A stretch of 64,000 bases of DNA from Vicinamibacterales bacterium (lineage in GTDB: Bacteria > Acidobacteriota > Vicinamibacteria > Vicinamibacterales > UBA8438), in assembly GCA_965247955.1 (NCBI GenBank), contig OZ252042.1:1968323-2032322 (forward strand), in the 5' to 3' direction. Made by a program: the position numbers and the translations under genes. Position 1 is the first letter of the stretch, and the number at the start of each line of letters is the position of its first letter. Under the pieces are notes generated by a model, which made no database searches, was not told the DNA's origin, and worked only from the letters and a program-made list of their open reading frames with translations. Below, one piece after another: positions 728 through 64,000 of this stretch.

Positions 728-951
728 TGGGACGGTGACCGTGTCTCTTCAAGAGATGAGGATACGCTGGTGACCGCACAAGAAGTCACCGCCCCGTGGA
801 ATTGGTCGCGTCACGCGGCGAAGATTGGTCGGATTCGCTCGAAGGCGAGGGCATGTAATTGTACTAATGAAAGCGGATTTTGTGATTTTGTCTTGGAGGA
901 ATGGGTAGTGGTCTAGTTTGAAAAGCGCGGCCCCCTGGACAGATCGTCTCG

Positions 952-1185: not shown

Positions 1186-1192
1186 CTGCTAA

Positions 1193-1645
1193 CTACTGCT
1201 GGCGTTCTGCAACATCTTCGCTGAAATCCAAGATTATCTGGATTTCGGGCACCTTCTCCTCGTTCATATCGTTGTAGACAATCACGTCGGTATTCAACTG
1301 AGCGCATTCGCCAACGATGTGCTCCCGACGTTGCGCAAAGGCTTTCTCCATGTGCTCATGGGGAGCGAATCCCATGATTGCCCAGAAGGACTGTGGCTTG
1401 CCGTCCTTGGTGGTCCGAACGGCATGGTTGACCCTATAGCGGTGACCCTTATGGGTGTCCAGCTCCTGCGCCAGGGCCTTGGACATTTGGTTCGCGAGAA
1501 CCTCGCACGGATCGATTGGAGGTGGCGTTGCGAGCAAGCCCTGGTTGATGGCCCAGTCAACGGCGTCCCGAGTACGAGATGGTGCATGTTCGTGCTCTGT
1601 CTCGTACAAGTGGAAAATGGCCTGCAGTGTCTCGTTCTTGGTCAT
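1193..1645 (-). CDS. hypothetical protein, third gene of the passenger operon
   Basis: 150 aa with no family recognised. Starts 17 nt after the stop of the XRE-peptidase gene on the same strand. Clean codon usage. Confidence 0.6.
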   Translation of the reverse strand: MTKNETLQAIFHLYETEHEHAPSRTRDAVDWAINQGLLATPPPIDPCEVLANQMSKALAQELDTHKGHRYRVNHAVRTTKDGKPQSFWAIMGFAPHEHMEKAFAQRREHIVGECAQLNTDVIVYNDMNEEKVPEIQIILDFSEDVAERQQ

Positions 1646-1662
1646 TGGTCAAGCCTCTGGAT

Positions 1663-2790: not shown

Positions 2791-2799
2791 AAGTCACCC

Positions 2800-3093
2800 T
2801 TAGTGGTAGTCTTCAACTTGTAGGATGGTTACTCTGTTCGGCTTGGATTCTGTGTCGATTGTAAAGACCAATCGCCATTGGTCGTTAATCCGAATCGAAC
2901 GTTCTTCACGTCGTCCTTTCAGCTTCTCGTAGTGCAGGCTCTTCCAGTTCCGCAGCGTTCGCTCGTCAGGTGCCTGTCGAATCACATGTAGTTTTCGCCT
3001 CAACGCTTTGATGACAGCAATCGGCAGTCGGGTCTCGGCGGCACGGTCCGTCTCGACAAGCGCAAGGGACGTGTCGCGGAACTCGATCTCCAT
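2800..3093 (-). CDS. higB: HigB-like (plasmid maintenance system killer) toxin
   Basis: 97 aa. The C-terminal RINDQWRLVF...V.ILQVEDYH pattern is typical of HigB/RelE-fold toxins. First gene of a 3-gene operon. Confidence 0.7.
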   Translation of the reverse strand: MEIEFRDTSLALVETDRAAETRLPIAVIKALRRKLHVIRQAPDERTLRNWKSLHYEKLKGRREERSIRINDQWRLVFTIDTESKPNRVTILQVEDYH

Positions 3094-3159
3094 CCAATCA
3101 CCGAAAACAGTATAGAGAAATACACTACTGAACGCAACTCGTTAAATTATCTTTTATGC

Positions 3160-3188
3160 TTGACATATCAGGTCTGGTTGATTACACT
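3160..3188 (+). promoter_or_regulatory. candidate sigma70-type promoter for the IS transposase (leaderless geometry)
   Basis: TTGACA (3160-3165), 17-nt spacer, TACACT (3183-3188). The ATG at 3196 lies 7 nt after the -10 element and has no SD. Confidence 0.4.
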
Positions 3189-3195
3189 TCGTCTC

Positions 3196-4038
3196 ATGAA
3201 TCGGCTAGACACGAAACGGCGGGCACAAGTCGTCGCCGCCCTAGTCGAAGGCAACAGCCTCCGGGCAACTGCCAGGATGACGGGCGTGGCTCGGATGACC
3301 GTCGAGAAGCTGCTGCGCGACTTGGGCGCAGCTTGTGCCGCGTACCAGGACGAGCATCTGCAGAATCTGCCCTGCCGCCGTATTCAGTGCGACGAGATCT
3401 GGTCGTTCGTGTACGCCAAAGCGAAGAACGTCGAGAGTGCGAAGGACGCGCCCGACGTGGCGGGCGACGTGTGGACTTGGACGGCCATTGATGCCGACAC
3501 CAAGCTGGTGCCATCGTGGCGCATCGGCTCGCGTGACTTGGCGACGGCCTATGACTTCATGCACGACCTTGCTGACCGGCTTCGGCACCGCGTGCAGCTC
3601 ACGACAGACGGCCACAAGCCCTACCTGGAGGCCATCGAGAGCGCGTTCAATTTGGACGTGGATTACGCGGTGCTCCAGAAGATTTACGGCGCGGACCCGC
3701 AGCCGCAGAAGCGGTACAGCCCTGCCAATTGCCTGGGCTACGACGTGAAGACGGTCACCGGCGAGCCGAACCCGAAGCACATCTCAACCAGCTTCGTTGA
3801 ACGGCAGAATCTCACGATGCGGATGAGCATGCGGAGATTCACGAGGCTGACCAACGCCTTCTCAAAGAAGGTCGAGATGCACGCGCACTCGGTGGCGCTG
3901 CATTTCATGCACTACAACTTCGTGAAGATCCACTCGACGCTGAGGACGACCCCGGCGCAGGCCGCTGGCGTGACCGACCGGCTGTGGGAAATTTCGGACC
4001 TCGTGGAATTGCTCGAAAGTACCGAGTCGTCAAACTAG
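3196..4038 (+). CDS. IS1-family DDE transposase (single-ORF type)
   Basis: 280 aa from ATG 3196; the ORF-track start at 3160 is a TTG inside the -35 element. N-terminal HTH. The C-terminal FVERQNLTMRMSMRRFTRLTNAFSKK motif is characteristic of IS1 transposases. The stop codon lies inside the right IR. Confidence 0.85.
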   Translation: MNRLDTKRRAQVVAALVEGNSLRATARMTGVARMTVEKLLRDLGAACAAYQDEHLQNLPCRRIQCDEIWSFVYAKAKNVESAKDAPDVAGDVWTWTAIDADTKLVPSWRIGSRDLATAYDFMHDLADRLRHRVQLTTDGHKPYLEAIESAFNLDVDYAVLQKIYGADPQPQKRYSPANCLGYDVKTVTGEPNPKHISTSFVERQNLTMRMSMRRFTRLTNAFSKKVEMHAHSVALHFMHYNFVKIHSTLRTTPAQAAGVTDRLWEISDLVELLESTESSN

Positions 4039-25768: not shown

Positions 25769-25824
25769 AAGGAATGGGTAGTGGTCTAGTTTGAAAAGCG
25801 CGGCCCCCTGGACAGATCGTCTCG

Positions 25825-26058
25825 ATGTGCGACAATTGGGTCGTGCCGACTCGGGCGAAAAAGAAACGGCCTCGCGATCCGAACCAGTTGGGTAAACTCG
25901 TCGTCGACATTGCGACGGGCGCAGCCCAGGACTCCGCTCCTCCTGGCCCCCAACGGGCAGGTGGCCTAAAGGGTGGTCCAGCCAGGGCGAACCGGCTGAC
26001 GCCGATAGAGCGGACGGAAATCGCGAAGCTGGCTGCCCAGGCACGCTGGAAGAAATAG
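25825..26058 (+). CDS. small basic protein (copy 2)
   Basis: Translation identical to 952-1185. Confidence 0.45.
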   Translation: MCDNWVVPTRAKKKRPRDPNQLGKLVVDIATGAAQDSAPPGPQRAGGLKGGPARANRLTPIERTEIAKLAAQARWKK

Positions 26059-26065
26059 CTGCTAA

Positions 26066-26518
26066 CTACTGCTGGCGTTCTGCAACATCTTCGCTGAAAT
26101 CCAAGATTATCTGGATTTCGGGCACCTTCTCCTCGTTCATATCGTTGTAGACAATCACGTCGGTATTCAACTGAGCGCATTCGCCAACGATGTGCTCCCG
26201 ACGTTGCGCAAAGGCTTTCTCCATGTGCTCATGGGGAGCGAATCCCATGATTGCCCAGAAGGACTGTGGCTTGCCGTCCTTGGTGGTCCGAACGGCATGG
26301 TTGACCCTATAGCGGTGACCCTTATGGGTGTCCAGCTCCTGCGCCAGGGCCTTGGACATTTGGTTCGCGAGAACCTCGCACGGATCGATTGGAGGTGGCG
26401 TTGCGAGCAAGCCCTGGTTGATGGCCCAGTCAACGGCGTCCCGAGTACGAGATGGTGCATGTTCGTGCTCTGTCTCGTACAAGTGGAAAATGGCCTGCAG
26501 TGTCTCGTTCTTGGTCAT
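26066..26518 (-). CDS. hypothetical 150-aa passenger protein (copy 2)
   Basis: Translation identical to 1193-1645. Confidence 0.6.
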   Translation of the reverse strand: MTKNETLQAIFHLYETEHEHAPSRTRDAVDWAINQGLLATPPPIDPCEVLANQMSKALAQELDTHKGHRYRVNHAVRTTKDGKPQSFWAIMGFAPHEHMEKAFAQRREHIVGECAQLNTDVIVYNDMNEEKVPEIQIILDFSEDVAERQQ

Positions 26519-26535
26519 TGGTCAAGCCTCTGGAT

Positions 26536-27663
26536 TCATAGCGACACGGGAATGGTCTGCCCCCATCCATCGGCCATCGCCGAGGGCAGCACGAATTGAC
26601 GTATTTTGACAAGGTGACGCGTTAGGTAATCCCAGCGGTCCATTCGCTTTTGCATCTGACCAATGATCAGTCCAGGGTGCCGCTGATGGAGCTTCGCAAA
26701 AGCCACAACATCCTTCTCGTAGTAGTACGGCTTCTTTCTCAGTAGGAAAGAAGCAAGCTTGTCTCGCGGGGCACAGAAATCTGCCGCAGCCGCATTCGCA
26801 GCGATTTCCTCCGGGAGAATCGTGACCCCGGCGCGGGGTGCTCCAGCCAAGTCTTCGTCGATTACTTCCTCGTCCTGGCCGTCTCTCCGAAGAACGTGCT
26901 CGATCTCATGGCGCAGGACAAACCAGAAGTTATCGATGGTGTCTCGCTGCAGCGACATGCCGATGACGGGCGAGTTGTCGTTGAGCCAAAAACACACTCC
27001 GTCGATTCTCGCCTTCGGTAGTTTCTCAACGACGACGAACCGGATGCCGCATTCGGCCATGATTCGCGGTACATGGCGTGTCTCTTCAGGAGCCCGAAGC
27101 AACGATTCCAGATCGCCGAGGGCCGTCTTCAACGCCTGCTTGGAGTACGCCGGGACCGTGATCGATTTGGCAATCTGACGCACGCGAAAGAGCCATGCCA
27201 GTTGAGGTGCGGGAATGTGCCGTTCCTCATAGCGGCTCTTCTTCGCCGCGTGCGACAGGTACGGAATCTCGCTGGCGTCGGCAACCTCAAAGAAGCGCAT
27301 AAACTGCGACTCCAACAGGGTCGTATCAGACGGTTCGATCCAACCCCGGCGAATCATCTCTCTGACCGGGAATGCGCTCTGCATGTTCCGCCGCGCGGGG
27401 ATGCTCGGGTCCGGGGTCTTGGCCTGCGACAGGTCGTAAGCCTGTTGGAGGTTCGCAAAGAACTCTGCGGACACATCGAACGCCTCGCCGAGCGCCCGAG
27501 CCATATCGGCGCTGATCCCGCGCTTTCCAGACAGAATCATGTTCACGATCTGTTCCCTACAGCCAAGAATGAACGCAAGGTCGCGCTGGAGCCAGCCACG
27601 TGTCTCCATCTCCTCCTTGATGTAGGAACCGGGGTGTTCGATCCACTCAGCATTCACAGTCAT
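26536..27663 (-). CDS. XRE HTH-ImmA/IrrE metallopeptidase fusion (copy 2)
   Basis: Translation identical to 1663-2790. Confidence 0.8.
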   Translation of the reverse strand: MTVNAEWIEHPGSYIKEEMETRGWLQRDLAFILGCREQIVNMILSGKRGISADMARALGEAFDVSAEFFANLQQAYDLSQAKTPDPSIPARRNMQSAFPVREMIRRGWIEPSDTTLLESQFMRFFEVADASEIPYLSHAAKKSRYEERHIPAPQLAWLFRVRQIAKSITVPAYSKQALKTALGDLESLLRAPEETRHVPRIMAECGIRFVVVEKLPKARIDGVCFWLNDNSPVIGMSLQRDTIDNFWFVLRHEIEHVLRRDGQDEEVIDEDLAGAPRAGVTILPEEIAANAAAADFCAPRDKLASFLLRKKPYYYEKDVVAFAKLHQRHPGLIIGQMQKRMDRWDYLTRHLVKIRQFVLPSAMADGWGQTIPVSL

Positions 27664-27672
27664 AAGTCACCC

Positions 27673-27966
27673 TTAGTGGTAGTCTTCAACTTGTAGGATG
27701 GTTACTCTGTTCGGCTTGGATTCTGTGTCGATTGTAAAGACCAATCGCCATTGGTCGTTAATCCGAATCGAACGTTCTTCACGTCGTCCTTTCAGCTTCT
27801 CGTAGTGCAGGCTCTTCCAGTTCCGCAGCGTTCGCTCGTCAGGTGCCTGTCGAATCACATGTAGTTTTCGCCTCAACGCTTTGATGACAGCAATCGGCAG
27901 TCGGGTCTCGGCGGCACGGTCCGTCTCGACAAGCGCAAGGGACGTGTCGCGGAACTCGATCTCCAT
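27673..27966 (-). CDS. higB: HigB-like toxin (copy 2)
   Basis: Translation identical to 2800-3093. Confidence 0.7.
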   Translation of the reverse strand: MEIEFRDTSLALVETDRAAETRLPIAVIKALRRKLHVIRQAPDERTLRNWKSLHYEKLKGRREERSIRINDQWRLVFTIDTESKPNRVTILQVEDYH

Positions 27967-28068
27967 CCAATCACCGAAAACAGTATAGAGAAATACACTA
28001 CTGAACGCAACTCGTTAAATTATCTTTTATGCTTGACATATCAGGTCTGGTTGATTACACTTCGTCTC

Positions 28069-28911
28069 ATGAATCGGCTAGACACGAAACGGCGGGCACA
28101 AGTCGTCGCCGCCCTAGTCGAAGGCAACAGCCTCCGGGCAACTGCCAGGATGACGGGCGTGGCTCGGATGACCGTCGAGAAGCTGCTGCGCGACTTGGGC
28201 GCAGCTTGTGCCGCGTACCAGGACGAGCATCTGCAGAATCTGCCCTGCCGCCGTATTCAGTGCGACGAGATCTGGTCGTTCGTGTACGCCAAAGCGAAGA
28301 ACGTCGAGAGTGCGAAGGACGCGCCCGACGTGGCGGGCGACGTGTGGACTTGGACGGCCATTGATGCCGACACCAAGCTGGTGCCATCGTGGCGCATCGG
28401 CTCGCGTGACTTGGCGACGGCCTATGACTTCATGCACGACCTTGCTGACCGGCTTCGGCACCGCGTGCAGCTCACGACAGACGGCCACAAGCCCTACCTG
28501 GAGGCCATCGAGAGCGCGTTCAATTTGGACGTGGATTACGCGGTGCTCCAGAAGATTTACGGCGCGGACCCGCAGCCGCAGAAGCGGTACAGCCCTGCCA
28601 ATTGCCTGGGCTACGACGTGAAGACGGTCACCGGCGAGCCGAACCCGAAGCACATCTCAACCAGCTTCGTTGAACGGCAGAATCTCACGATGCGGATGAG
28701 CATGCGGAGATTCACGAGGCTGACCAACGCCTTCTCAAAGAAGGTCGAGATGCACGCGCACTCGGTGGCGCTGCATTTCATGCACTACAACTTCGTGAAG
28801 ATCCACTCGACGCTGAGGACGACCCCGGCGCAGGCCGCTGGCGTGACCGACCGGCTGTGGGAAATTTCGGACCTCGTGGAATTGCTCGAAAGTACCGAGT
28901 CGTCAAACTAG
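28069..28911 (+). CDS. IS1-family transposase (copy 2)
   Basis: Translation identical to 3196-4038. Confidence 0.85.
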   Translation: MNRLDTKRRAQVVAALVEGNSLRATARMTGVARMTVEKLLRDLGAACAAYQDEHLQNLPCRRIQCDEIWSFVYAKAKNVESAKDAPDVAGDVWTWTAIDADTKLVPSWRIGSRDLATAYDFMHDLADRLRHRVQLTTDGHKPYLEAIESAFNLDVDYAVLQKIYGADPQPQKRYSPANCLGYDVKTVTGEPNPKHISTSFVERQNLTMRMSMRRFTRLTNAFSKKVEMHAHSVALHFMHYNFVKIHSTLRTTPAQAAGVTDRLWEISDLVELLESTESSN

Positions 28912-54106: not shown

Positions 54107-55500
54107 AGTTGTGGATCCGCGATTAGCGTGATCAGGCGGCTTCCTTCCGATCCTCCTCGGTGTTTGGTTCCTGCTGCACTCCGTCGATGAAGACCACACC
54201 AGCCCGCACGAGCGGCAGCAGGTGTGCGGCATTGAGTCGCCGCCACCGCCGCTGGGCCATGTCGAGCAACTTGTAAGCCATCAGTAGGCCCTTGGTGCGA
54301 GAGCCGGCCCCCTTGGTGACCCGTTGCCGCAAGCGGACCGTGGCGAACGGCGATTCGATGACGTTCGTGGTCCGGAGATGAATCCCGTGTTCGGCTGGAA
54401 AGGCGAAGAAGGTCAGGAGCGCCTCCCGGTCGGTCGCCAGGCACGCGGCCGCTTTCGGATACTTCGCCTCGTACTCCGCGACGAAGGTGTCGAGATGTTC
54501 CTCGGCCTGCTCGCGCGTCTCCGCCGCCAGGATGTCGTGCAGCGCGCGCTTGGCCTTGGGCTGGAGACGTTTCGGGAGCTTGTCCAGGACATTTTCCAGC
54601 TTGTGGAACCAGTCGCGTTGCTCGGCCGTCTGGGGCCACACGTCCCGGACGGCGCTCCAGAACCCCAGGGCCCCATCGCCAACCGCGACCACGGGCGCCT
54701 CGAGCCCGCGGCGCTGCAGCCCTCGCAACAGCTCCGCCCAGCTCTCGGCACTTTCGCGGTACCCGTCCTCGAGCGCGACGAGCTCCTTCGTCCCGTCGGC
54801 GCGCGCGCCGATGACCACCAGCGTGCACAGGCGGTCGTCCTCCAGCCGGATGTTGAAGTGAATCCCGTCGACCCAGACATAGACGTAGTCCCGATCGGCC
54901 AGGTCGCGCTGCCGGAACTGCCGATACTCGTCTTCCCAGACCGCGGTCAGCCGCGCGATGTTGGTCGCGCTCAGCCCGGCCGCGTCGTCTCCCAGCAGCA
55001 CGGGCAGCGCTTCGCGGAAGTCGCCCGTGGACAACCCGCGGAGATAGAGAATCGGCAGCACCTCGGCCACCTTGGGGGACCGGCGCATGTAGGGCGGAAG
55101 GATCCGGCTGGTGAACCGCTCGCGCTGGCCCGTGGCATCGACCCGCTTGTCGTTCACCCGCGGCGCTCGCACCTCCACTGTGCCCGCCCCACACGTGACC
55201 TTCCGGGCCTCGGCCTGACCGTGGCGGACCACCAGTCGCCGCCCGCTCGCGTCGCGAGCCTCCTGGTAGGCGTCCACATACTGGGCCACCTCGACCTGCA
55301 GGGCTGCCATCAGCATCCGCCGAGCACCCTCCCGGGCCAAGTCGTCCAGCGGCGGAGTCGCGGGCGTTTCTTCCGTTTCCGTCGTCGTGTCGAGTACCTT
55401 CAGCATGGGTGGCGTCTCCTTTCACCGGCCTGCCAGCCGGCGTCTCACGTTGATTACGCGAAAGGATACGCCGCCTTCTTCACGCTCCCGATCCACAACT
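54107..55500. mobile_element. IS256-family insertion sequence
   Basis: About 1.39 kb. Imperfect terminal inverted repeats start AGTTGTGGATC (54107-54117) and, reverse-complemented, 55490-55500, with further shared blocks AGCGTGA and AGGCGGC. No obvious target duplication. Confidence 0.65.
54132..55406 (-). CDS. IS256-family (Mutator-type) transposase
   Basis: 424 aa. YLRGLSTGDF, VWVDGIHFNIR, VGDGALGFW, FFAFPAEH and RTTNVIES motifs. Confidence 0.9.
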   Translation of the reverse strand: MLKVLDTTTETEETPATPPLDDLAREGARRMLMAALQVEVAQYVDAYQEARDASGRRLVVRHGQAEARKVTCGAGTVEVRAPRVNDKRVDATGQRERFTSRILPPYMRRSPKVAEVLPILYLRGLSTGDFREALPVLLGDDAAGLSATNIARLTAVWEDEYRQFRQRDLADRDYVYVWVDGIHFNIRLEDDRLCTLVVIGARADGTKELVALEDGYRESAESWAELLRGLQRRGLEAPVVAVGDGALGFWSAVRDVWPQTAEQRDWFHKLENVLDKLPKRLQPKAKRALHDILAAETREQAEEHLDTFVAEYEAKYPKAAACLATDREALLTFFAFPAEHGIHLRTTNVIESPFATVRLRQRVTKGAGSRTKGLLMAYKLLDMAQRRWRRLNAAHLLPLVRAGVVFIDGVQQEPNTEEDRKEAA

Positions 55501-55982: not shown

Positions 55983-56390
55983 TTCTCCACTCCTTAAAGC
56001 TTCATTGCAAACAGTGTCGCGATTGTTCTGGCCGGAGCGTGTGGACGAACAGATATTCTCCTCTCCCAGGGAGAAGGATCCGGCCCAAGCGGCTATCCAT
56101 AAACAGCCCGTATGAGCGCCGTGCGCCCCAGCCGCCGGTTTTCATCTCTCAGAGGCTGAGCTCTTTTTCCGGCTGCTTGTTGTAGAAGATGCATTCAGAG
56201 AGTCCGACCCAGAAAACAAGGAGCTGTTTCGGTACTTTCGGCGATCAAAACACATGGTGCGCTCAAAGGGAAACCCGCCCGCATATGACCCGTATAGACA
56301 GAGGACACCCGTAATATTAACCGTATTCCACAAGCTTTCAGTCCCCGTAATAGTAAAGCTATCATCCTGCTAAGTGATTGATTTAAAAGG

Positions 56391-56448
56391 TGGTGCGGAA
56401 GGGGGGATTTGAACCCCCACGGTGTTGCCACCGCCAGCCCCTCAAGCC
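56391..56448 (-). other. 3' half of a tRNA-Leu(GAG) gene (anticodon loop to CCA); candidate att core
   Basis: The minus strand reads GGC-TTGAGGG-GCTGG, variable arm CGGTGGCAACACCGT, T arm GGGGGTTCAAATCCCCC, acceptor CTTCCGC-A-CCA. No matching 5' acceptor strand or D arm lies upstream. Confidence 0.7.
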
Positions 56449-56513: not shown

Positions 56514-57737
56514 TCAACTCACACCCGTGTTTGGAGGGGTTTTCCTTCTCGCGCTCTGAGCACTCCCCATATTTTTCACAGACGCTGGAGGGCTGGCCTT
56601 GACCGGCGCCATGACGATGTCCGCCAAGGGCAGCCGGGCCGATAGGCGCTCGACGGCGTCGATCAGGTGTCGAGGGCGCAGGTGGGTGTACTTGCGCGTG
56701 GTCGCAGCGTCGGTGTGGCCCATGAGGGCACTGCGCTTACTCTCCGAGATCTCCAGGTCCGCCATCTCCGTCTGCGCTATATGGCGGAGCGAGTGAAACG
56801 TGACCCCGTTCCTGGTGAGCCCATAGACGAGGTCGGCCTTCTCCGCCGCGCGTCGGACGCCATGCCGGATGTCGTGCACCGGCTGTCCTCGGTAGGTCAC
56901 CACATACGGGCTCCCGCTGCCCCGGTGCTGGCGCTCCTCGAGGATCGTCCGGAGCTGCGCGGAGATGGGGTGCACCAGTGGGCGCCGAATCTTCCGCACC
57001 GTCTTGTGTCCCGGAATCGTGATGAACTCCAACCCGGGATCGAGGTGCTCATCAAAGCGGAGTTGCAGAATGTTGCGGAGCCGGAGGGTTGGGGCAAGAG
57101 CGCCAATCGCGACGGCCAACCGGATATGATACGGGGCCTCCGCGATCCAGGCCCGGAGCTGCGCGGGTGTCACCGTGACGTCGCGTGAGACCGTCTGATC
57201 GCGCTCGATCGCGAGGAACGGGTTCATCGTGATGCCCGTGACCTTGCGATACTTCGGCAGCATGGCCACCCGGTACATCCGACTCATCACCGACCGATAG
57301 TGGTTCCGTGTTTGGGGGGAACAGCGCGGTCGGTGGGCCATCCACGCCTCGAAGCGTTCGATCCAATCAGGATCGACAATGGGGTCGGCCAAGGTCAGGT
57401 TGTGGTACGGATCGCGCTCGGACAGGACCGCGCCGGGATCACTCGGCCGGGCACCCCAAAACCGAAGGACCACACGCAGGACAGCTTCGACATGATCGGG
57501 GCGCGCGAGCCGCGCGGCGGCGTGCGTGTAATACACCTCGGCCCCCTCACTGAACCGCGGCGCGTCCTGCTCACGAGGAATCCCCGCCCAGGCGCGGCGC
57601 ACACGCTGCTTCATGGCGTCTTCGGCGCGACGGGCGTCGGTCAGCGTGAGCTGGCCGGTCGTGCCGCGGTAGCGCTTCCCTCGGAACACGAAGTCATAGG
57701 AATACGAGCGGCCCTTCTTCTGGCGGTAGACCGTCAT
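56514..57737 (-). CDS. int: tyrosine integrase (intact)
   Basis: 407 aa. HSLRHIAQTEM and MGHTDAATTRKYTHL contain the HxxR, H and catalytic Y. Confidence 0.9.
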   Translation of the reverse strand: MTVYRQKKGRSYSYDFVFRGKRYRGTTGQLTLTDARRAEDAMKQRVRRAWAGIPREQDAPRFSEGAEVYYTHAAARLARPDHVEAVLRVVLRFWGARPSDPGAVLSERDPYHNLTLADPIVDPDWIERFEAWMAHRPRCSPQTRNHYRSVMSRMYRVAMLPKYRKVTGITMNPFLAIERDQTVSRDVTVTPAQLRAWIAEAPYHIRLAVAIGALAPTLRLRNILQLRFDEHLDPGLEFITIPGHKTVRKIRRPLVHPISAQLRTILEERQHRGSGSPYVVTYRGQPVHDIRHGVRRAAEKADLVYGLTRNGVTFHSLRHIAQTEMADLEISESKRSALMGHTDAATTRKYTHLRPRHLIDAVERLSARLPLADIVMAPVKASPPASVKNMGSAQSARRKTPPNTGVS

Positions 57738-57762: not shown

Positions 57763-57993
57763 TCACGGCGGCGGCTTCCCCCGGTTGATCTGTTGTCCGC
57801 ATTGCTTCCTCGGGCGCCAGATTAGGAACAGAGCTGGCACTACGAGTACAAGCATTACTAGCGAGACCACGCCATGACGCGCTGAACCCGTCACGAACTC
57901 GATACCAGCAGCAGCCACCAGGGTGGCGACGACCCACGCGACGACGTTGAGCGCGATGCCTCTAACTCCCACGCGACTGTCCGCGCCGCCCAC
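57763..57993 (-). CDS. small membrane protein (2 TM)
   Basis: IALNVVAWVVATLVAAAGI and VVSLVMLVLVVPALFLI are hydrophobic segments. The start overlaps repressor remnant R1. Confidence 0.35.
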   Translation of the reverse strand: MGGADSRVGVRGIALNVVAWVVATLVAAAGIEFVTGSARHGVVSLVMLVLVVPALFLIWRPRKQCGQQINRGKPPP

Positions 57994-58073
57994 GTCACCT
58001 CGCCGATGATCACGGCGTCCGCAGGCCAGGGCCGCATCGGCCAGTCCTGTTTGTCCGGGTTGTCGCTCACGAG
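57977..58073 (-). pseudogene. repressor 3'-end remnant R1 (most divergent)
   Basis: The minus strand reads LVSDNPDKQDWPMRPWPADAVIIGEVTWAART. Compare the full copy: LVSDNKAYKPVPWPRDGQVIGQVMWTGRTL. Confidence 0.55.
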
Positions 58074-58149
58074 CATGCCTTCGGCGACGCGACCCTTGGC
58101 TATCCCAGTGTGTCTCTCCTCATAGCGCCCGCCCCTGCGTTGCGCTACG

Positions 58150-58872
58150 ATGGAGGGCGAAAGAGGCGGCATCATAGACGCAGGCGAACGGCACGAGATG
58201 CAGCAAGGACTCGCGGGGACGGCCCTCAATGCGATTGTTCGCCCGGATCTGATCACCGTGGTGACAGACACCCTCGCCGTAGACCTCCACGCCCGGACTC
58301 CGACCAAGTTCTCATCGAAGGTCGTGCTGCTCCCACACCTCCAGGGGGTTGTCTGCGGCACGGGATCTTTCAATCTCCTAATGGATTGGTTTCGGATCGT
58401 CGAACAACAGATCGTCGCGCGGGACCTCCCTCATGCGGGCCGCTACGCGCCCCCCCTCTTACGACAACTGGCCAGCGCCTTGGTGTCGACGCACAAGACG
58501 CCTGACGCGGGCATGGGTGTCGTGTATCACTTCGGCGTGTGTTCTCGGACGAATAGCTGTCGCGCCTTCGGGTTCGACTCAGAGCGAGCGTTCGAACCGC
58601 GAGAGTACACGAATTGCCTGATTCTGCGGCCAGCATTCGACTCACTCCCACCACCGCCGACAGGTGACGAGGATGCGCGTAATTGGTTCATTCGAATGGT
58701 AGACGCACAGCGAGCGCTCGGTGGGAATGAGACGACGCGCACGCCCCGAATTGGTGGCGAACTACCCCTCACGACCATTGGAAAGCACGGCCTGTCAGTG
58801 CAGACGATTCATCGGTTTGATGACTACGAATCCGACTACGCGGCCATGCTCGCCGGGATGGCGCCGGCGTAG
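58150..58872 (+). CDS. hypothetical protein
   Basis: 240-aa ORF with no family recognised. Only plus-strand gene inside the cassette array. Confidence 0.4.
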   Translation: MEGERGGIIDAGERHEMQQGLAGTALNAIVRPDLITVVTDTLAVDLHARTPTKFSSKVVLLPHLQGVVCGTGSFNLLMDWFRIVEQQIVARDLPHAGRYAPPLLRQLASALVSTHKTPDAGMGVVYHFGVCSRTNSCRAFGFDSERAFEPREYTNCLILRPAFDSLPPPPTGDEDARNWFIRMVDAQRALGGNETTRTPRIGGELPLTTIGKHGLSVQTIHRFDDYESDYAAMLAGMAPA

Positions 58873-58916
58873 CGCATCACCTGCCCCAGAACAGCCGTCG
58901 CTCGCCTCTGCCTGGC

Positions 58917-58946
58917 TCACAGCGTCCGCCCCGTCCACATCACCTG
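58917..58946 (-). pseudogene. repressor 3'-end remnant R2 (30 nt)
   Basis: The minus strand reads QVMWTGRTL-stop, preceded by an in-frame TAG. Confidence 0.6.
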
Positions 58947-59041
58947 CTACGGCTCCCGCGGGTGCGCCGTGTCCCACTCGCGCGCGCGGCGCCGCGCCTC
59001 GGCGGTCTGCTCGCGGGTCATCTGCGCGGCCAGGGCAGCGC

Positions 59042-59497
59042 TCAGTCTTCAATCATAGTCTCGACCTCGAACCCTGCCGCGCCCAACGCCGCCCGGAGCT
59101 GCCGCTGGTTCTTCTTGTCCAACCGCATGTAGGCATAGCCGCCGTCCCACTCGATCGTGAGCCAGTGCTTCTTGCCGGGGGAGAACAAAGCCAACGGCGA
59201 GAGGAAGATGGCGCTCTTCAGCCGTGGCGACTTCGCCCGCTCGTAGCGGACGCTGGTGACATCGGCGAACGGCACCACGGCGTAGGTGGCCTTCTCTGCG
59301 CCCTTCTTCTCGTCCACGATCGCGATCGTCTGGGCCTCGCGGTCGAGCTCCAGGCGGGCGTCGCGTTTCTTTTCGTCTTGTTCGCCGTTGTCCTTGGTCA
59401 CGACTTCAAAGTAGTCGACCTTCCGAAACTCCACCACGTCCGCGGCCAGCACCGGTACGGACACCAGCACCAGGCCGCTCCACATCATGCGTGTCAT
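59042..59497 (-). CDS. secreted protein, unknown function
   Basis: Signal peptide MTRMMWSGLVLVSVPVLAA. 151 aa. Confidence 0.5.
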   Translation of the reverse strand: MTRMMWSGLVLVSVPVLAADVVEFRKVDYFEVVTKDNGEQDEKKRDARLELDREAQTIAIVDEKKGAEKATYAVVPFADVTSVRYERAKSPRLKSAIFLSPLALFSPGKKHWLTIEWDGGYAYMRLDKKNQRQLRAALGAAGFEVETMIED

Positions 59498-59507
59498 GTT
59501 CTCCTCC

Positions 59508-60100
59508 TTAGAGATCCAGCTTCAGTCGGTGGCACTTCTTGAACTTCTTCCCGCTGCCGCAGGGACAGGGGGCGTTGGGCCGCACGCCAGCGAAGTTGGC
59601 TCGGTGTATTTCATCCACGTAGTCGATGCGAACGGATGAGGGCGTGCGGAACGACATCCAGGTCTGCCCATCAAGTTGGTGATGGAGAAATCGCCAAGGC
59701 AGATGACGTCCATGCCAAGAATGACGTCGAACCCGTTACGTGTCGGGAATTCAGTAACAAGTGCGCCGGCGATCCTAACCTCGTTCGGAAGCGTGAAGTT
59801 GACAAGGTAGAGTAACCGGTTGCTTGAGCCGTCCGCGTGGTGAACGGTCGTCTAACCAACCGGGATGAGGTCGAGTTGCTGCACGAGGTCGGTGGCAATC
59901 ACGCTCTTCGTTGCACCGGTGTCCCACAGTGCTCGGGTCGTGATGAGGAGCGGGAGTACCGCCGGCGGCGTCAGGGGCTCGTAGGCCGCGCAGACTTTGA
60001 CGTCACTGATGATGCGGTCGAGTCGTCCGGGTCCCCTTTACCGTGAGCGCACTCGGCCTGTGTGCTGGCCTCGGGTCAGACACGCACCAATCCCGGCGGC
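59508..60100 (-). pseudogene. retropepsin-like protease with SEC-C motif, disrupted paralogue of 29649-30278
   Basis: ALWDTGAT active site and C-terminal [13 protein letters not shown] are present. Interrupted by an in-frame TAA near 60048, a TAG at 59852-59854 and a frame break near 59650-59670. Confidence 0.6.
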
Positions 60101-60103
60101 CGT

Positions 60104-60322
60104 TCAGTTAATGGTGACCGTATACGCACCTGAGCCAGGTTCACACGGCTGGAGCATGAAGGTGCCGAGCGGAAACTGCTTTCCTGCGGACACGTAGGCA
60201 GCCAACGCGGAGTCGTACGCGCCCTCGATGCGCTCGCCGCGGATCACAAGCACCTTCCCGCGATGCTTGGCGACGAGCTCGTCCTGGTAGGCAACGAAGA
60301 ACGCGAGTTCCTTGTCGAACAT
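60104..60322 (-). CDS. small DUF5678-like protein, paralogue of 30271-30510
   Basis: HRGKVLVIRGERIEGAYDSALAAYVSA...GTFMLQPC has the same layout as the 79-aa partner protein. Confidence 0.5.
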   Translation of the reverse strand: MFDKELAFFVAYQDELVAKHRGKVLVIRGERIEGAYDSALAAYVSAGKQFPLGTFMLQPCEPGSGAYTVTIN

Positions 60323-60461
60323 TAGCCCCTCCTCTTCAGATTCCAGAGGCTCCTTGATTCTACGTCCAGCGTCGGGGTCTCAGCAAACGCGGGATGCTCA
60401 AGCGTCGTCGCCCTGGACCTCCTTCGCCAGCGACGGACATCGGGGCTCGACGTGCAGGGCG

Positions 60462-60554
60462 TCACAGCGTCCACCCCGTCCACATGACCTGCCCGAGCAC
60501 CTGACCGTCGCGCGGCCACGGCACTGGCGTATACGCCGGGTTGTCGCTCACGAG
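60462..60554 (-). pseudogene. repressor 3'-end remnant R3
   Basis: LVSDNPAYTPVPWPRDGQVLGQVMWTGWTL-stop, preceded by an in-frame TAG. Confidence 0.65.
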
Positions 60555-61021
60555 CTACTAGCGGCGGCGGCGCCCGTTGGGGTGTCGGGTCTCTTTTGCG
60601 CAAAGGTGGACAGTAGAACCAGACTCGCGAGCACGATGATCGCGATGCCCCACGACAGCGACACGCTCGCTAGAGCCATTTCACTGATTTCTTGAGCCAG
60701 ACCCGCGAATGGATTGTCGGCAGACAGCTCATCTTCTGCGAGGCTGCTGGCCAATTCAGCCCGGCGAACAAAGTAGTAGATCACGCCAGCCGCGACGTAG
60801 AGCGCACTCACAATACCCGTCAGACCAACTGCGCGCGGCTTCTCGGTTAGCCCGGCAACAACGGCAGCCACCCCGAAGACAAGCAGGGCAACCCCAGCGG
60901 CCCAGTGCAACGCGAAGGGGGACAAGGTCCCGACAATCGGAAGAGACACTACTGGAGCGAACGCCGCCACTATCAGCCCAGCGCCGCCGATCATTCCACA
61001 GAGTTGTGCGTTGATAGTCAC
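60548..61021 (-). CDS. 4-TM membrane protein
   Basis: 157 aa with four long hydrophobic segments. GTG start. Confidence 0.5.
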   Translation of the reverse strand: MTINAQLCGMIGGAGLIVAAFAPVVSLPIVGTLSPFALHWAAGVALLVFGVAAVVAGLTEKPRAVGLTGIVSALYVAAGVIYYFVRRAELASSLAEDELSADNPFAGLAQEISEMALASVSLSWGIAIIVLASLVLLSTFAQKRPDTPTGAAAASSS

Positions 61022-61078
61022 TGTGTTCTCCTCAGAATGTCCTTGGAGTTGATCGGAGGTTCGTCGTCCGGACGCCCC

Positions 61079-61218
61079 TCACAACGTTCTCCCCGTCCAC
61101 ATGACTTGCCCCAGCACCACAGCGTCACGTGGCCACGGCACCGGCTTGTACGCCTTGTGGTCGCTCACCAATTGCCAGCCGTCCTCGGTGCGCTGAAGCC
61201 CCTTGACCACCGGGCCGT
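61079..61218 (-). pseudogene. repressor 3'-end remnant R4
   Basis: GPVVKGLQRTEDGWQLVSDHKAYKPVPWPRDAVVLGQVMWTGRTL-stop. Nucleotide similarity to the full copy ends at 61218. Confidence 0.7.
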
Positions 61219-61226
61219 CTGTTCTC

Positions 61227-61685
61227 TCAACGAGGGATCGTCTTCGTCTCGGCCGCCCCTGGCACAAGAACTTCAAAGCGATCATCCCAAACGGACAGCA
61301 GTACGGTGTCTCGCGCACAGCCGTTAGGACACAGATCGCTCGTGACCGGTACGTCAATAAGAATCTCTGGCTCGTTGCGGCCAAGCGGGTAGAAGTAAAG
61401 CTGTTGGGTTGTGCCGACAGCTAGGCTCTCGTAGTCGCGGAAGTCACCACCAGACTCTAAGTTCGGAAACCAAGAACCTTCTCCCATGAGCCAAATCTCT
61501 GTCCTTTGTCCCTCAACGGGAATCTGATCCGTCTCGTCGCTCACAGACACGCGTAGCGTGATTGCGGATGCGACTTCCTGGGTGACGGGGCCGTCTTCCG
61601 GCACAGAATTACCAGGCGCGCCGCACGCCGCCGAGGTTAGGATGCTCACTGCGAGCGTCCCAACCCATGCGTGATTCCTGTTCAT
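61227..61685 (-). CDS. lipoprotein, unknown function
   Basis: MNRNHAWVGTLAVSILTSAAC signal/lipobox. The start ATG overlaps the stop of remnant R5 (ATGA). Confidence 0.55.
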   Translation of the reverse strand: MNRNHAWVGTLAVSILTSAACGAPGNSVPEDGPVTQEVASAITLRVSVSDETDQIPVEGQRTEIWLMGEGSWFPNLESGGDFRDYESLAVGTTQQLYFYPLGRNEPEILIDVPVTSDLCPNGCARDTVLLSVWDDRFEVLVPGAAETKTIPR

Positions 61686-61945
61686 AACGTTCTCCCCGTC
61701 CACATCACTTGCCCCAACACGACCGCCCCGTCCGGCCACGGCACCGGCTTGTAGGCTTTGTTGTCGCTGACAAGCTGCCAGCCGTCCTCGGTGCGCTGAA
61801 GCCGCTTGACCACCGGGCCGTTTTCGGTGCGCACCGCGAAGATCTTGTCCCGCCGCCGCACGGTGCGCTGAAAGTCCACGAGGATCATCGCGCGGTTCTC
61901 GAGCGTCGGCTCTATCGAATCGCCGGTGACTTCGATGACGCGGCA
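61682..61945 (-). pseudogene. repressor 3'-end remnant R5 (S24 peptidase domain only)
   Basis: CRVIEVTGDSIEPTL...WQLVSDNKAYKPVPWPDGAVVLGQVMWTGRTL-stop. A stretch of about 95 nt is identical to the full copy. Confidence 0.75.
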
Positions 61946-61959
61946 CGGCGTCTCGCGGC

Positions 61960-62046
61960 CAGCCCTGAACGAGCTCGTCAACCCTTTTCGACGACATTCC
62001 CATCTTCACCGCCGCGTCAACGTGACTGAGCTCGCGTGGCTTCAGG
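61960..62046 (-). pseudogene. HigA-like HTH fragment
   Basis: LKPRELSHVDAAVKMGMSSKRVDELVQG. Compare HigA at 8274-8561: LQPGELTQVDAAAQMGISRNRLNELIQG. Out of frame with R5. Confidence 0.45.
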
Positions 62047-62472
62047 CTTCGGGCTTCTGCAGCCGTCGATGCTGCACATCCCGGGGCCGCGCGTCGCGAT
62101 GTACAGAAACGCGAAGGAGTACAACGCAGCGAGCTCACCGGCGTTCTGAATCGGCCACAGTCCGCGAGGCTGATGGCTCAGGAAGTAGGCCGCCGCCATT
62201 TCACCGCTGCAGATGAATGCCGTCGGTACGGTAAAAAAACCGAACATGATGAGCGGGCCGCCGATGCCCTCGAGGACACCAGCCACCCATCTGAGCGTTC
62301 CGAACTCCACGGCAGTGCCGCCAAGCAACCCCCACTTTTGGAGCCCATGAAACATGAAGAGAAAACCGATGACGATGCGCACGGCGGCATACGCGTGGGG
62401 TTCGAACGGCCTCAACATCCGGAACATAATGCCTCCTGCAAGACTGGGAAAGAGAACCTTGAACTCATGCAC
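62017..62472 (-). CDS. DoxX-family membrane protein
   Basis: RIVIGFLFMFHGLQKW ... GPLIMFGFFT ... GEMAAAYF pattern. The C-terminal tail reads into the HigA fragment. Confidence 0.7.
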   Translation of the reverse strand: MHEFKVLFPSLAGGIMFRMLRPFEPHAYAAVRIVIGFLFMFHGLQKWGLLGGTAVEFGTLRWVAGVLEGIGGPLIMFGFFTVPTAFICSGEMAAAYFLSHQPRGLWPIQNAGELAALYSFAFLYIATRGPGMCSIDGCRSPKPEATRAQSR

Positions 62473-62496
62473 AGGACGGCCTTGCTGGTGTATCCC

Positions 62497-62605
62497 TCAC
62501 AGCGTCCGTCCCGCCCACATCACCTGCCCGAGCACCTGAGCGTTTCGCGGCCACGGCGCGGGCTTATACGCCGGGTTGTCGCTGACGAGCTGCCAGCCGT
62601 CCTCG
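62497..62605 (-). pseudogene. repressor 3'-end remnant R6
   Basis: EDGWQLVSDNPAYKPAPWPRNAQVLGQVMWAGRTL-stop. Lies 25 nt upstream of the DoxX start. Confidence 0.7.
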
Positions 62606-62794
62606 TCACCAAGTAATGTTCCTGGCGAAAGCGACCTTGGCCCCTACAGCAATCTGCCGTTCGTCTGGCGTGTACACGCCAATCGTGTAGTCGTACTCGC
62701 CTGGGCCGATTTCCCTCTGTGGTGGAGTATCTGCGTATGATTTCACCATTCTACGAAGTTGTCGCCAAGCTCTTGTGCACGAGCCTGCGGGGTG

Positions 62795-63055
62795 TTAGCC
62801 GGGACTAATGAGTGCGAGACGAAAGTCTTGGCCATCTTGCGAGATCGCCGCGTCTAGCATTTCGGGGTAGTTCTTGATAGTCTCAATGGCGAGCATTTCC
62901 TGCAGTGCGCGATCCGCATCGTCGCCGGGCGTGCTCTCCTCGACGTCTGCCGAAGGCGCGGGTTCCTCCTCGGGTGCCTCGGTGCATCCGATCCCAACCA
63001 CAACACAGAGCGCCGCAATTACGATGACCTCTTGTCGGCCGCAATTCCTGTTCAC
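62795..63055 (-). CDS. small lipoprotein, unknown function
   Basis: VNRNCGRQEVIVIAALCVVVGIGC signal/lipobox. The GTG start overlaps the repressor stop (GTGA). Confidence 0.45.
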   Translation of the reverse strand: MNRNCGRQEVIVIAALCVVVGIGCTEAPEEEPAPSADVEESTPGDDADRALQEMLAIETIKNYPEMLDAAISQDGQDFRLALISPG

Positions 63056-63759
63056 AATGTCCTCCCCGTCCACATCACCTGCCCGATCACCTGACCGTCG
63101 CGGGGCCACGGCACCGGCTTGTACGCCTTGTTGTCGCTCACTAATTGCCAGCCGTCCTCGGTGCGCTGAAGCCGCTTGACCACCGGGCCGTTTTCGGTGC
63201 GCACCGCGAAGATCTTGTCCCGCCGCCGCACGGTGCGCTGGAAATCCACGAGGATCATCGCGCGGTGCTGCAGCGTCGGCTCCATCGAATCGCCCGTGAC
63301 TTCGATGACGCGGCAGCGTTTCGGATTCAGGCTGTGCCGTCGTAGCCAGTCGTCCCGGAAGGCGAGGCTACCCAACACGCGCTCGTCGTCGGGGTTGGCT
63401 CCCGGGCCAGCGGCGATCCCCATCCCCGTGGTGAGCAGCACGGGCCTGAACTCGCGGCTGTCGGCAGGCGCCAGCGCCCCGGCGTCGTCCAGCTCGCGCA
63501 CCACGTTGGCCCGCTCCTGGGCGAGTTCGGCGGCAAGTGTGGCGGCGGGCTCGGGGTTGTCCGTGAGGCCCGCCAGGTAGTCGAGCGAAATATTGAGTTC
63601 ACGAGCGGCCTTCGTCGCGCCGTCGAACAGCAAAGACGAACGGCCGTTCTCAACGTGCGAGATCATCTGCTGGTTGTAGCGATCACCAAGCGCTACAGCT
63701 AGCTCAACCTGCTTCAGTCCCACGCGCCTTCTCGCCTCGGCCAAGCGCTCTCCGAGCAT
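63052..63759 (-). CDS. CI/LexA-type repressor: XRE HTH plus S24 peptidase domain, intact
   Basis: 235 aa. HTH segment LKQVELAVALGDRYNQQMISHVENGRS. S24 domain with GDSMEPTL (Ser) and VVKRL (Lys). Confidence 0.85.
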   Translation of the reverse strand: MLGERLAEARRRVGLKQVELAVALGDRYNQQMISHVENGRSSLLFDGATKAARELNISLDYLAGLTDNPEPAATLAAELAQERANVVRELDDAGALAPADSREFRPVLLTTGMGIAAGPGANPDDERVLGSLAFRDDWLRRHSLNPKRCRVIEVTGDSMEPTLQHRAMILVDFQRTVRRRDKIFAVRTENGPVVKRLQRTEDGWQLVSDNKAYKPVPWPRDGQVIGQVMWTGRTL

Positions 63760-63770
63760 CGGCTGACTCT

Positions 63771-63816
63771 ACCAACGGAGTTGGTGTTGACATACTAACT
63801 GAATGAGTGTTATCTT
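63771..63816. promoter_or_regulatory. switch region: palindrome plus candidate rightward promoter
   Basis: ACCAAC-GGA-GTTGGT (63771-63785). TTGACA (63787-63792), 17-18 nt spacer, TTATCT/TATCTT. CTGAAT...ATTCAG inverted pair. Confidence 0.35.
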
Positions 63817-63842
63817 TCAAAACTAATTCAGATGGTGTCCAA

Positions 63843-64000
63843 ATGAGCGAAGACATTAGGCGTCGGATGGCCCTGTTGAGTGTGAGCCAAGAGCGGATCG
63901 CACTGGCCGCCGGCTACGAACCCTCGCTATTCAGCCGCATCCTCAATGGCCTGCGGCGCGAGCCTGCCGACTTCGAGCGGCGCGTCACGGCCGTGCTGGA
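63843..64000 (+). CDS. Cro-like HTH protein (partial, runs off the window)
   Basis: MSEDIRRRMALLSVSQERIALAAGYEPSLFSRILNG. Divergent from the repressor. Confidence 0.5.
   Translation, partial: MSEDIRRRMALLSVSQERIALAAGYEPSLFSRILNGLRREPADFERRVTAVL

Follow-up and report, generated by a model that had tools for sequence, protein, structure and literature searches.

The 64,000-nucleotide stretch analysed here, referred to as the window, comes from a Vicinamibacterales bacterium (contig OZ252042.1 of assembly GCA_965247955.1, positions 1,968,323 to 2,032,322 of the forward strand) and runs into the integrase-proximal end of a prophage, where six 5'-truncated copies of a CI-like repressor gene are interspersed with unrelated genes between the intact repressor and the integrase. 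The repressor tail common to these copies is called the handle, and the genes between them cargo. From the anatomy of this array, its recurrence in related loci and the reassortment of sequences flanking the handle, we think it probable that repressor-plus-cargo segments stack upstream of older cargo through recombination in the conserved repressor tail, and that the fragments would be both scars of past events and reusable homology for later ones.

Repressor fragments of different allelic origin

The six partial repressor copies (R1 to R6; Table 1) all lie on the minus strand, co-oriented with the full gene and anchored at its 3' end, between repressor and integrase. The family was recovered by a direct-repeat search, and a stop-codon-anchored alignment of its members shows the common C-terminal pattern ..LVSDN..PWP....G.VMWTGRTL*. 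Searches with nhmmer, using two handle profiles (types A and B) built from full-length relatives, gave matches in the window with E values of 2e-38, for the handle part of the resident repressor (63052-63201), to 8e-5, while a handle 21-mer (GGGCAGGTGATGTGGACGGGG; at most three mismatches) matched six times, always on the minus strand, versus 0.01 matches expected from shuffled sequences. Six nested, 3'-anchored minus-strand copies are what the original prediction had described, with coordinates that agree to within a few bases. The repeat search also returned a possible further mini-copy of 18 nt (58875-58892), which is too short to judge.

Repressor C-termini fall into two types, A (..GQVMWTGRTL) and B (..GEVKWAARTF), of which type B also occurs in full-length repressors of relatives. 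R1, earlier described as a divergent copy, is a real fragment, but is of type B rather than a decayed form of the same allele, and shares 85-87% identity with type B fragments in three related loci (L065, L014, and L004; loci are designated by L numbers throughout). Over its 31 nt, R2 shows 100% identity with fragments of L053, L063, and L064, while R3 is 92.6% identical to the full repressor of L010 versus 89% to the resident gene, and R6 is 91% identical to the full repressors of L005 and L010 versus 84% to the resident. For R4 the corresponding values are 90.8% to the full repressor of L006 and 90.0% to the resident. R1, R2, R3, and R6 are thus nearer to foreign repressors than to the resident one, and the fragments are remains of different alleles.

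This proximity to foreign alleles, together with the mixing of types A and B in one array, means that the fragments are not internal duplications. A tandem internal duplication of the resident repressor 3' end, or an origin of each handle and its cargo as the end of an independent decayed prophage, is an explanation to which we assign a nearly negligible probability. Extreme polylysogeny, with 9-10 repressor/handle loci per metagenome-assembled genome (MAG), would provide decayed prophages in number, but the region holds one integrase and one attachment site (att) remnant, neither phage structural nor att sequences lie between the fragments, and the cassettes measure only 0.5-1.5 kb. As there is one integrase and one att remnant, the fragments are not ends of separate decayed prophages, and this alternative, which the original prediction had itself raised, fails.

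In the comparison of R5 with the resident repressor, identity is 95.9% over the first 170 nt, where a run of 95 bases shows no difference, and falls to 76.6% in the last 94 nt (p of the breakpoint 4.5e-6); the tail of R5 together with the next 60 nt downstream is 96-100% identical to L062. R5 thus has a crossover breakpoint. It lies within a 99-amino-acid (aa) open reading frame (ORF; 61682-61981, minus strand, TTG start) that keeps the catalytic S24 Ser and Lys, with the helix-turn-helix (HTH) domain and the cleavage site absent. The resident repressor is itself a recent domain-level mosaic, because its 5' 263 nt (63541-63803, the HTH and operator-proximal part) are 95-96% identical to L022, L023, and L024 (9954-10216), whose repressors have a type B C-terminus, and the remaining part of the gene is of type A, with about 80-87% similarity to type A genes. 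An exact-sequence search with the resident repressor matched no record. Its homologues number in the hundreds, frequently with more than one in a genome, and homologues place the host in the order Vicinamibacterales of the Acidobacteriota. In an alignment of homologues Ser157 and Lys194 are invariant, and at the Ala-Gly site (116-117) G117 is invariant and A116 is kept in at least 90%.

Repressor fragment arrays recur in related loci

Seventy-one genome loci from Vicinamibacterales and Bryobacterales were fetched and scanned with the two handle profiles, giving results for 70. This revealed 191 handle matches, every one on the strand of its anchoring repressor (191/191), with 176 of the 191 reaching the 3' end of the model. 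The 129 fragments among them are 31-279 nt long (median 78), and at least one fragment is present in 50 of the 70 loci, with a range of 1-8 per locus. The original prediction had suggested a search of related genomes for the same handle with other cargo, and the pattern does recur in these 50 loci. Wherever both ends lie within the fetched DNA the order is repressor, cargo with fragments, integrase, and a tRNA gene was found just past the integrase in six of nine loci checked, representing five types (Glu, Arg, Asp, Ala, and Lys). The integrases adjoining the arrays belong to different families, with about 31-50% identity. With six fragments over 5.1 kb, the array in the window is among the largest that still have a full repressor. 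In IMG/VR only distant repressors (at most 41% identity) were found, and these were not used.

Some arrays lack a full repressor within 10 kb, for example that of L059 with seven fragments. Two genomes contain 9-10 repressor/handle loci each, namely MAG CBDFLL (L003-L006, L009, L016, L059, L064, and L065) and OZ252219 (L010, L022, L023, L030, L057, L058, L061-L063, and L071). These loci represent either extreme polylysogeny or prophage remnants, and could be a cassette reservoir.

Cargo found at the same position in relatives includes AbiJ_NTD4, HSDR_N_2 with RAMA, a D12 methyltransferase with a SacI-type endonuclease, PIN domains, a ParE toxin with an HTH antitoxin, and Sel1 and pentapeptide proteins. 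Given the AbiJ, restriction-modification, PIN, and toxin-antitoxin cargo, we read the repressor-integrase interval as one that behaves as a lysogenic-conversion and defence hotspot.

Flanking sequences reassort across the handle

Flanks of 200 nt, taken upstream of each fragment 5' boundary and downstream of each stop codon, were clustered at the DNA level. This approach was used in place of gene calling based on G+C content at third codon positions (GC3), by which real cargo ORFs could not be separated from shadow ORFs. Nine of the 27 downstream-flank clusters occur after both full repressors and fragments, ten after fragments that differ by more than 10 nt, and two after both type A and type B handles. 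Lipoprotein A, for instance, comes after the full repressor in the window and in L003 but after a 105-nt fragment in L065; the fragments ahead of lipoprotein B measure 264, 72, and 57 nt; and the downstream flank of R3 is found after fragments of 103 nt (window), 86 nt (L010), and 39 nt (L029). Each upstream-flank cluster has a constant 5' boundary, for instance at 82-86 nt (seven loci) or 63-66 nt (five loci), and in pairs sharing both upstream flank and boundary the downstream flank differs in 47 of 53. After a common junction between a Sel1-repeat gene and the handle (..CCGTAG|CGACA.., at the 'SDN' codons) come tails of either type, A or B, and no fewer than nine different cargo flanks. The 5' boundary thus travels with the upstream cargo and the 3' end with the downstream cargo, and the two recombine freely, which is what crossovers inside the handle predict.

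It might instead be that the fragments are passive scars only, debris of illegitimate recombination and deletion in a hotspot with no part in later exchange, their 3' anchoring being a consequence of additions arriving from the repressor side and of the need to keep a repressor that works. Several observations fit such an origin: 5' boundaries ranging from 31 to 279 nt require non-homologous events, an insertion sequence (IS) lies directly upstream of the truncated repressor in L065, Sel1 cargo is likewise nested and 3'-anchored, the first fragment tends to be longer than the last, suggesting erosion with age, and synonymous sites in the handle show no excess conservation. However, 47 of 53 pairs combine the same 5' junction with differing downstream cargo, and the same cargo occurs with different 5' extents, which needs crossovers inside the handle. 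The breakpoint in R5 and the continuation of a single Sel1|handle junction by tails of both types also speak against debris that takes no further part in exchange, and we consider this explanation unlikely.

Conservation of the handle and a proposed mechanism

The handle peptide GQVMWTGRTL scarcely varies and contains many residues that have a single codon. Because of this protein constraint the handle DNA is conserved, and stays 80-100% identical across otherwise diverged phages. Synonymous-site conservation is 0.91 bits in the last 12 codons versus 0.89 bits elsewhere, and this lack of excess argues against a recombinase site or an RNA element.

The same comparison bears on the idea that the arrays consist of site-specific cassettes, in which the handle 3' end would be an integron-like attachment site, or elements would integrate at the repressor 3' end and supply a replacement end, with the adjacent integrase or another recombinase carrying out insertion. 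A tyrosine integrase does stand at the end of every array, and the last 30 nt of the handle are its best conserved part and all that R2 contains. Successive integrations at the 3' end of a gene can leave displaced 3' copies, as is generally known for icd, the target of phage 21 and e14, and for tRNA genes. However, the integrases differ in family and are associated with five tRNA types, yet the handles are the same; the att remnant of the prophage is unrelated to the handle; the cassettes have no recombinase of their own; the 5' boundaries are not fixed; and no inverted-repeat architecture was seen, the array repeat search having covered direct repeats only. We found no indication of site-specific recombination in the analyses made and regard it as most improbable here.

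We propose instead that the arrays grow and change through recombination in the repressor tail. Each fragment would mark a past event that joined a new repressor and its cargo upstream of resident cargo. Occasional illegitimate recombination or deletion, possibly between co-resident or tandem related prophages or between co-infecting phages, would make a truncated repressor fused to the end of an upstream cargo gene. By a simple route, the cargo of a new phage would be joined inside the old repressor by deletion or unequal exchange, leaving the old tail and its cargo downstream. Far more often, homologous recombination would take place in the S24 C-terminal coding sequence, probably in relaxed form and by single-strand annealing proteins such as Erf. 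Such crossovers would pair upstream cargo and its 5' junction anew with a handle 3' end and the cargo that follows it, whereby cassettes could be gained, lost, and exchanged among related phages. Rad52-like recombinases, including Erf, efficiently recombine short sequences down to 78% identity (PMC3945230). Among the relatives, the prophage of L156 encodes Erf and a YqaJ exonuclease, and L002 has a faint PDDEXK match; the window ends 240 nt beyond the repressor.

Some observations concern the way in which the 5' truncations arose. An IS element stands directly upstream of the 105-nt repressor stub in L065, and junctions often fall exactly at the stop codon of the upstream gene, as with the 4-transmembrane (4-TM) TGA and the Sel1 TAG, suggesting trimming under a limit on genome size. 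In 15 of 21 arrays the first fragment exceeds the last in length (paired p 0.046), and length against distance gives a Spearman coefficient of -0.17 (p 0.14); this weak trend towards longer proximal fragments fits ongoing erosion.

The stop codons at these junctions take particular positions. The TGA of the 4-TM gene in the window (60548-60556) falls out of frame in the handle motif GT(G/A)AGCGAC, which encodes part of 'LVSDN'. In several relatives the Sel1 TAG holds the same GT(G/A)AGCGAC position, and in the shorter R2 of the window it is joined further 3', directly to CAGGTGATG (58944-58949). At such junctions the stop codon is thus either provided or adjoined by the fragment.

Several points weigh against the proposed stacking by recombination. 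Homologous recombination moves existing fragments but cannot create a new 5' truncation, and we infer the origin of the truncations. No near-identical pair of arrays differing by one cassette was found among the related loci, the closest repressor being only 87% identical, so that a single gain or loss is nowhere captured directly. The loci cluster in a few MAGs, with about 19 coming from two of these, so that copying within a genome, and not exchange between phages, may underlie some of the reassorted pairs. The cargo ORF at 58150-58872 lies on the opposite strand, which is at odds with a single operon; the promoter and terminator scans use an E. coli-type consensus that may not suit Acidobacteriota; and the remainder of the prophage, including its own early genes, falls outside the window. 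The original prediction, in which repressor-plus-cargo modules recombine through the handle and push older cargo downstream, is backed by the shared downstream flanks (9 and 10 of 27 clusters), the reassorted pairs, the foreign alleles, and R5, but its scheme does not extend to the 5' truncations, which need illegitimate recombination or deletion.

More tentatively, and with the odds in our judgement against so broad a claim, the S24 C-terminal sequence might be the universal recombination linker of a phage-borne cassette platform, a functional integron analogue running on relaxed homologous recombination and not on a site-specific integrase. With it, polylysogenic Acidobacteriota of soil, and the temperate phages they harbour, would take up, stack, rearrange, and lose lysogen-expressed envelope and defence genes behind the repressor promoter, with the arrays kept by second-order selection for evolvability.

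Cargo genes and their expression

The GTGA and ATGA stop/start overlaps reported for lipoproteins A and B were confirmed in the sequence, and the cargo is otherwise co-oriented and tightly packed. Terminator-like sites in the array occur at chance level, none convincing between genes. In L001, L002, and L157 all genes called between repressor and integrase are co-oriented. Because of this co-orientation, the tight packing and overlaps, and the lack of convincing terminators, the repressor promoter probably drives cargo expression in the lysogen, as it drives that of rexAB in lambda.

Such coupling raises a different reason for which the tails might be kept, namely as the translation start region of the next gene, with a Shine-Dalgarno-like GGAGG in ..GGGAGGAC.. 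and a GTG or ATG overlapping the stop codon, so that selection would act on cargo expression and not on recombination. Both lipoprotein genes do begin at an xTGA overlap, 5 nt past GGGAGGA or GGGAGAA, and a coupled ORF of at least 50 aa follows 33% of full repressors. However, only 37 of 179 handles are coupled to an ORF (18 of 118 fragments), and start coupling therefore cannot be the main reason that the tails persist. Four of the six fragments in the window precede genes with their own start 24-140 nt downstream, and fragments far longer than 30 nt would be left unexplained, making this explanation very unlikely.

Against Pfam, PADLOC, PHROGs, and NCBIfam, the cargo of the window gave no known defence family and, for most genes, no function; the same searches detected no toxin/immunity pair in the window and no recombinase in the cassettes. 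The suggestion that this cargo encodes superinfection-exclusion factors has thus gained no direct support and no PADLOC match, and the AbiJ-like, restriction-modification, PIN, and ParE/antitoxin domains noted above are those of relatives at the same position. A hydrophobic segment is present in 32% of the ORFs that come first after a handle, versus 14% of early-region ORFs.

The first 100-160 nt of lipoprotein A are common to L003 and L065, and the signal-peptide region of lipoprotein B is common to L003 and L062, where it follows fragments of 57 and 72 nt, respectively. Similarity of the two lipoprotein genes to relatives (61608-61720 and 62893-63055) ends 70-160 nt into the gene, past the signal peptide, and the mature parts differ; lipoprotein A of L065 has about 180 aa versus 86 aa in the window. 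Cargo genes are thus themselves mosaic.

The DoxX assignment made earlier was upheld by a Pfam match. Among the best 80 of at least 535 metagenome homologues, all at most 66% identical, none has a handle nearby; DoxX belongs to a common family and was probably captured once. The protease pseudogene was likewise recognised correctly, as the sequence on reading shows a DTGA retropepsin-like motif, in-frame stop, frameshift, and SEC-C tail, of which the tail matches NCBIfam and PADLOC zinc-motif models only. The label 'DUF5678-like' given to the 72-aa protein was not borne out, as it has no Pfam match at E<=0.01 and no PHROG or NCBIfam match. The secreted 151-aa protein is 90-91% identical at the amino acid level in L029, L039, and L066, in differing array contexts. 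The opposite-strand ORF has a homologue in L011 with 79% nucleotide identity, and no homologue of the 2-TM ORF (57763-57993) was found among related loci.

The original prediction overlooked the approximately 100-nt Sel1-gene 3' remnant that directly precedes R2 (Table 1); the Sel1 Pfam assignment was made in L002 and L154. In relatives Sel1 cargo is also present as nested, 3'-anchored fragments covering the last 25 to 77 of 140 residues (L004, L010, L016, L059, L062, L064, and L065). Sel1 3' ends are repeatedly fused to handles at one point (TAG|CGACA), and the Sel1 tail acts as a second recurring linker.

Table 1. Features of the prophage end, by position in the window.
Feature	Position	Strand	Basis
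tRNA gene 3' part (..GGTTCAAATCCCCCCTTCCGCACCA), presumed attL	56390-56445	-	read straight from sequence
Tyrosine integrase	56514-57737	-	Pfam Phage_integrase 1e-14; sole integrase match in region
2-TM small ORF between R1 and integrase, doubtful as real gene	57763-57993	-	ORF, 2 hydrophobic segments
R1, type B, about 100 nt, without canonical stop	57972-58076	-	nhmmer type B 57978-58074, E 2e-19 vs type A E 9e-8
Convergent 240-aa ORF, phage family annotated terminase large subunit	58150-58872	+	phrog_13702 3e-27; no Pfam match
R2, minimal type A, 31 nt with stop codon	58917-58947	-	nhmmer E 8e-5
Sel1-repeat gene 3' remnant, about 100 nt, TAG stop fused to R2	58947-59044	-	blastn to Sel1 gene 3' ends in >10 loci; junction alignment
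Secreted 151-aa protein	59042-59497	-	ORF; highest GC3 in array
Retropepsin-like aspartic protease pseudogene, SEC-C tail	59508-60040	-	DTGATKSVI motif, in-frame TAG, frameshift, by reading
72-aa cargo protein, start coupled (TAATG) to upstream 46-codon ORF	60104-60322	-	97% aa identity in L029
R3, type A, about 93-103 nt with stop codon	60462-60564	-	nhmmer E 5e-23
4-TM membrane protein, TGA stop inside R3 handle motif CTCGTGAGCGAC	60548-61021	-	ORF; 4 hydrophobic segments; phrog_38854 (unknown function) 7e-12
R4, type A, 141-148 nt, abuts lipoprotein B stop codon	61079-61226	-	nhmmer 61079-61219, E 1e-34
Lipoprotein B, 152 aa, lipobox LTSAAC, ATG start overlaps R5 stop (ATGA)	61227-61685	-	ORF
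R5, type A, about 264-274 nt, nearly whole S24 core	61682-61955	-	nhmmer 61682-61831 and beyond, E 4e-36; blastn extends to 61955
DoxX-family membrane protein, likely start ATG 62427	62017-62472	-	Pfam DoxX 4e-8
R6, type A, 112 nt with stop codon	62497-62608	-	nhmmer E 7e-25
Lipoprotein A, 86 aa, lipobox-like VVGIGC, GTG start overlaps repressor stop (GTGA)	62795-63055	-	overlapping-start ORF
Intact HTH-S24 (CI/LexA-like) repressor, type A C-terminus	63052-63759	-	Pfam Peptidase_S24 6e-20, HTH_3 6e-8; phrog_4 transcriptional repressor 4e-42
AT-rich putative switch region, divergent promoter-like hexamers (63787-63816 on +, 63820-63792 on -)	63760-63842		consensus scan only
Cro-like HTH gene, 5' part, divergent from repressor, runs off window	63843-64000	+	translation MSEDIRRRMALLSVSQERIALAAGYEPSLFSRILNGL...

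Layout of the prophage end

In the order of transcription the region comprises cro, the switch region, the repressor, cargo, the integrase, and attL in a tRNA gene. The autocleavable-type HTH-S24 repressor is divergent from the cro-like gene, and the intervening AT-rich segment would act as the switch between them. A small HTH gene is found at the equivalent position in relatives, and related loci with more sequence have early phage genes upstream of the repressor (Cro-like HTH, CP76, DnaB, and methyltransferases). The tRNA remnant adjoins the integrase stop codon and has no 5' half, and ARAGORN and Rfam returned no complete tRNA and no RNA family in the 54-64 kb part of the window. Presumably 56390-56445 is the attL copy, and the intact tRNA would then lie beyond the window, where the prophage has its other end. 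The divergent cro-like gene, the integrase, and the tRNA remnant therefore identify the region as the integrase-proximal end of a tRNA-integrated lambdoid-type prophage that continues past the window.

Elsewhere in the window, a 424-aa ORF (54132-55406, minus strand), 1 kb from the prophage end, resembles an IS256-family transposase by eye only. A direct repeat (897-4038 and 25770-28911, spacing 24,873 nt) is 100% identical over at least 300 nt and has the same ORF layout over about 3 kb, probably representing two insertion sequence copies or a duplicated segment.

Comparison with known systems

Orphan arrays of contact-dependent inhibition (CDI) and Rhs loci consist of a full gene followed by 5'-truncated copies that carry a handle and different modules; displacement has been proposed as the way in which they grow, and the handle as the place where they recombine. 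The repressor arrays share the structure of orphan cdiA-CT/cdiI and Rhs-CT/immunity arrays, as a full gene with co-oriented 5'-truncated copies keeping the handle is found in the window and in 50 of 70 loci. The resemblance to CDI and Rhs loci that was drawn in the original prediction holds to this extent but stops at the variable part, which in CDI and Rhs systems is the C-terminal toxin domain of the handle protein with its immunity gene, whereas here it consists of separate ORFs past the stop codon. Recombination in CDI and Rhs loci alters the expressed toxin, while here it would alter the cargo behind the repressor and not the repressor.

The arrays also recall the integron, with a promoter-proximal platform, a row of small, co-oriented, promoterless-looking cassettes, a recurring sequence between them, and an adjoining tyrosine recombinase gene. 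Unlike in integrons, there is no fixed crossover point (5' boundaries of 31-279 nt), an IntI-type integrase is absent, and the adjacent integrases are phage-type and of several families. No attC-type inverted repeats were seen by reading, the handle being ordinary coding sequence without dyad symmetry, in searches that covered direct repeats only in the array and inverted repeats of at least 300 nt in the whole window, short ones not having been specifically searched for. Integration at 3' ends of the tRNA or icd type differs as well, since no integrase with a fixed att core lies between the displaced copies and a single integrase is present.

With lambda cI-rexA-rexB and the moron and defence hotspots generally known between integrase and repressor in temperate phages, the arrays have in common accessory genes near the integrase that directly follow a CI-like repressor in the same orientation, the repressor itself being divergent from cro. 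Unlike here, the lambda immunity operon and moron loci are not known to be interrupted by nested 3' fragments of a repressor gene, and expression of the present cargo is predicted. Full-text literature searches, with subscription journals outside their coverage, returned no description of repressor-fragment arrays.

In mechanism the closest parallel is phage mosaicism by relaxed homologous recombination (PMC3945230), in which homology traces are left at mosaic borders; here too, exchanged modules are bordered by short sequences (30-270 nt) of 77-100% identity. The reassorted pairs, R5, and the mosaic repressor all display modules exchanged between stretches of short, diverged homology in which the breakpoints fall, and the mechanism thus best matches relaxed homologous recombination by phage Rad52-like recombinases. 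The arrays depart from usual phage mosaicism and from the older 'linker sequence' idea of how phages evolve by modules in that one coding segment is reused in tandem, in ordered arrays, across two Acidobacteriota orders. Exchange of lysogen-expressed accessory genes is usually inferred from isolated mosaic borders, whereas here its history can be read from an ordered row of repressor stubs, and recurrence across dozens of prophages in two acidobacterial orders makes the long-debated idea of 'linker'-guided module exchange directly testable. The repressor-integrase interval of uncultured soil phages, easily located by a handle search, is a source of candidate lysogenic-conversion and anti-phage genes. 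Taken together, the array is known phage mosaicism and the known orphan-module array in a new form, and a widespread and unusually explicit example of lysogen-expressed genes accreted under the guidance of linkers.

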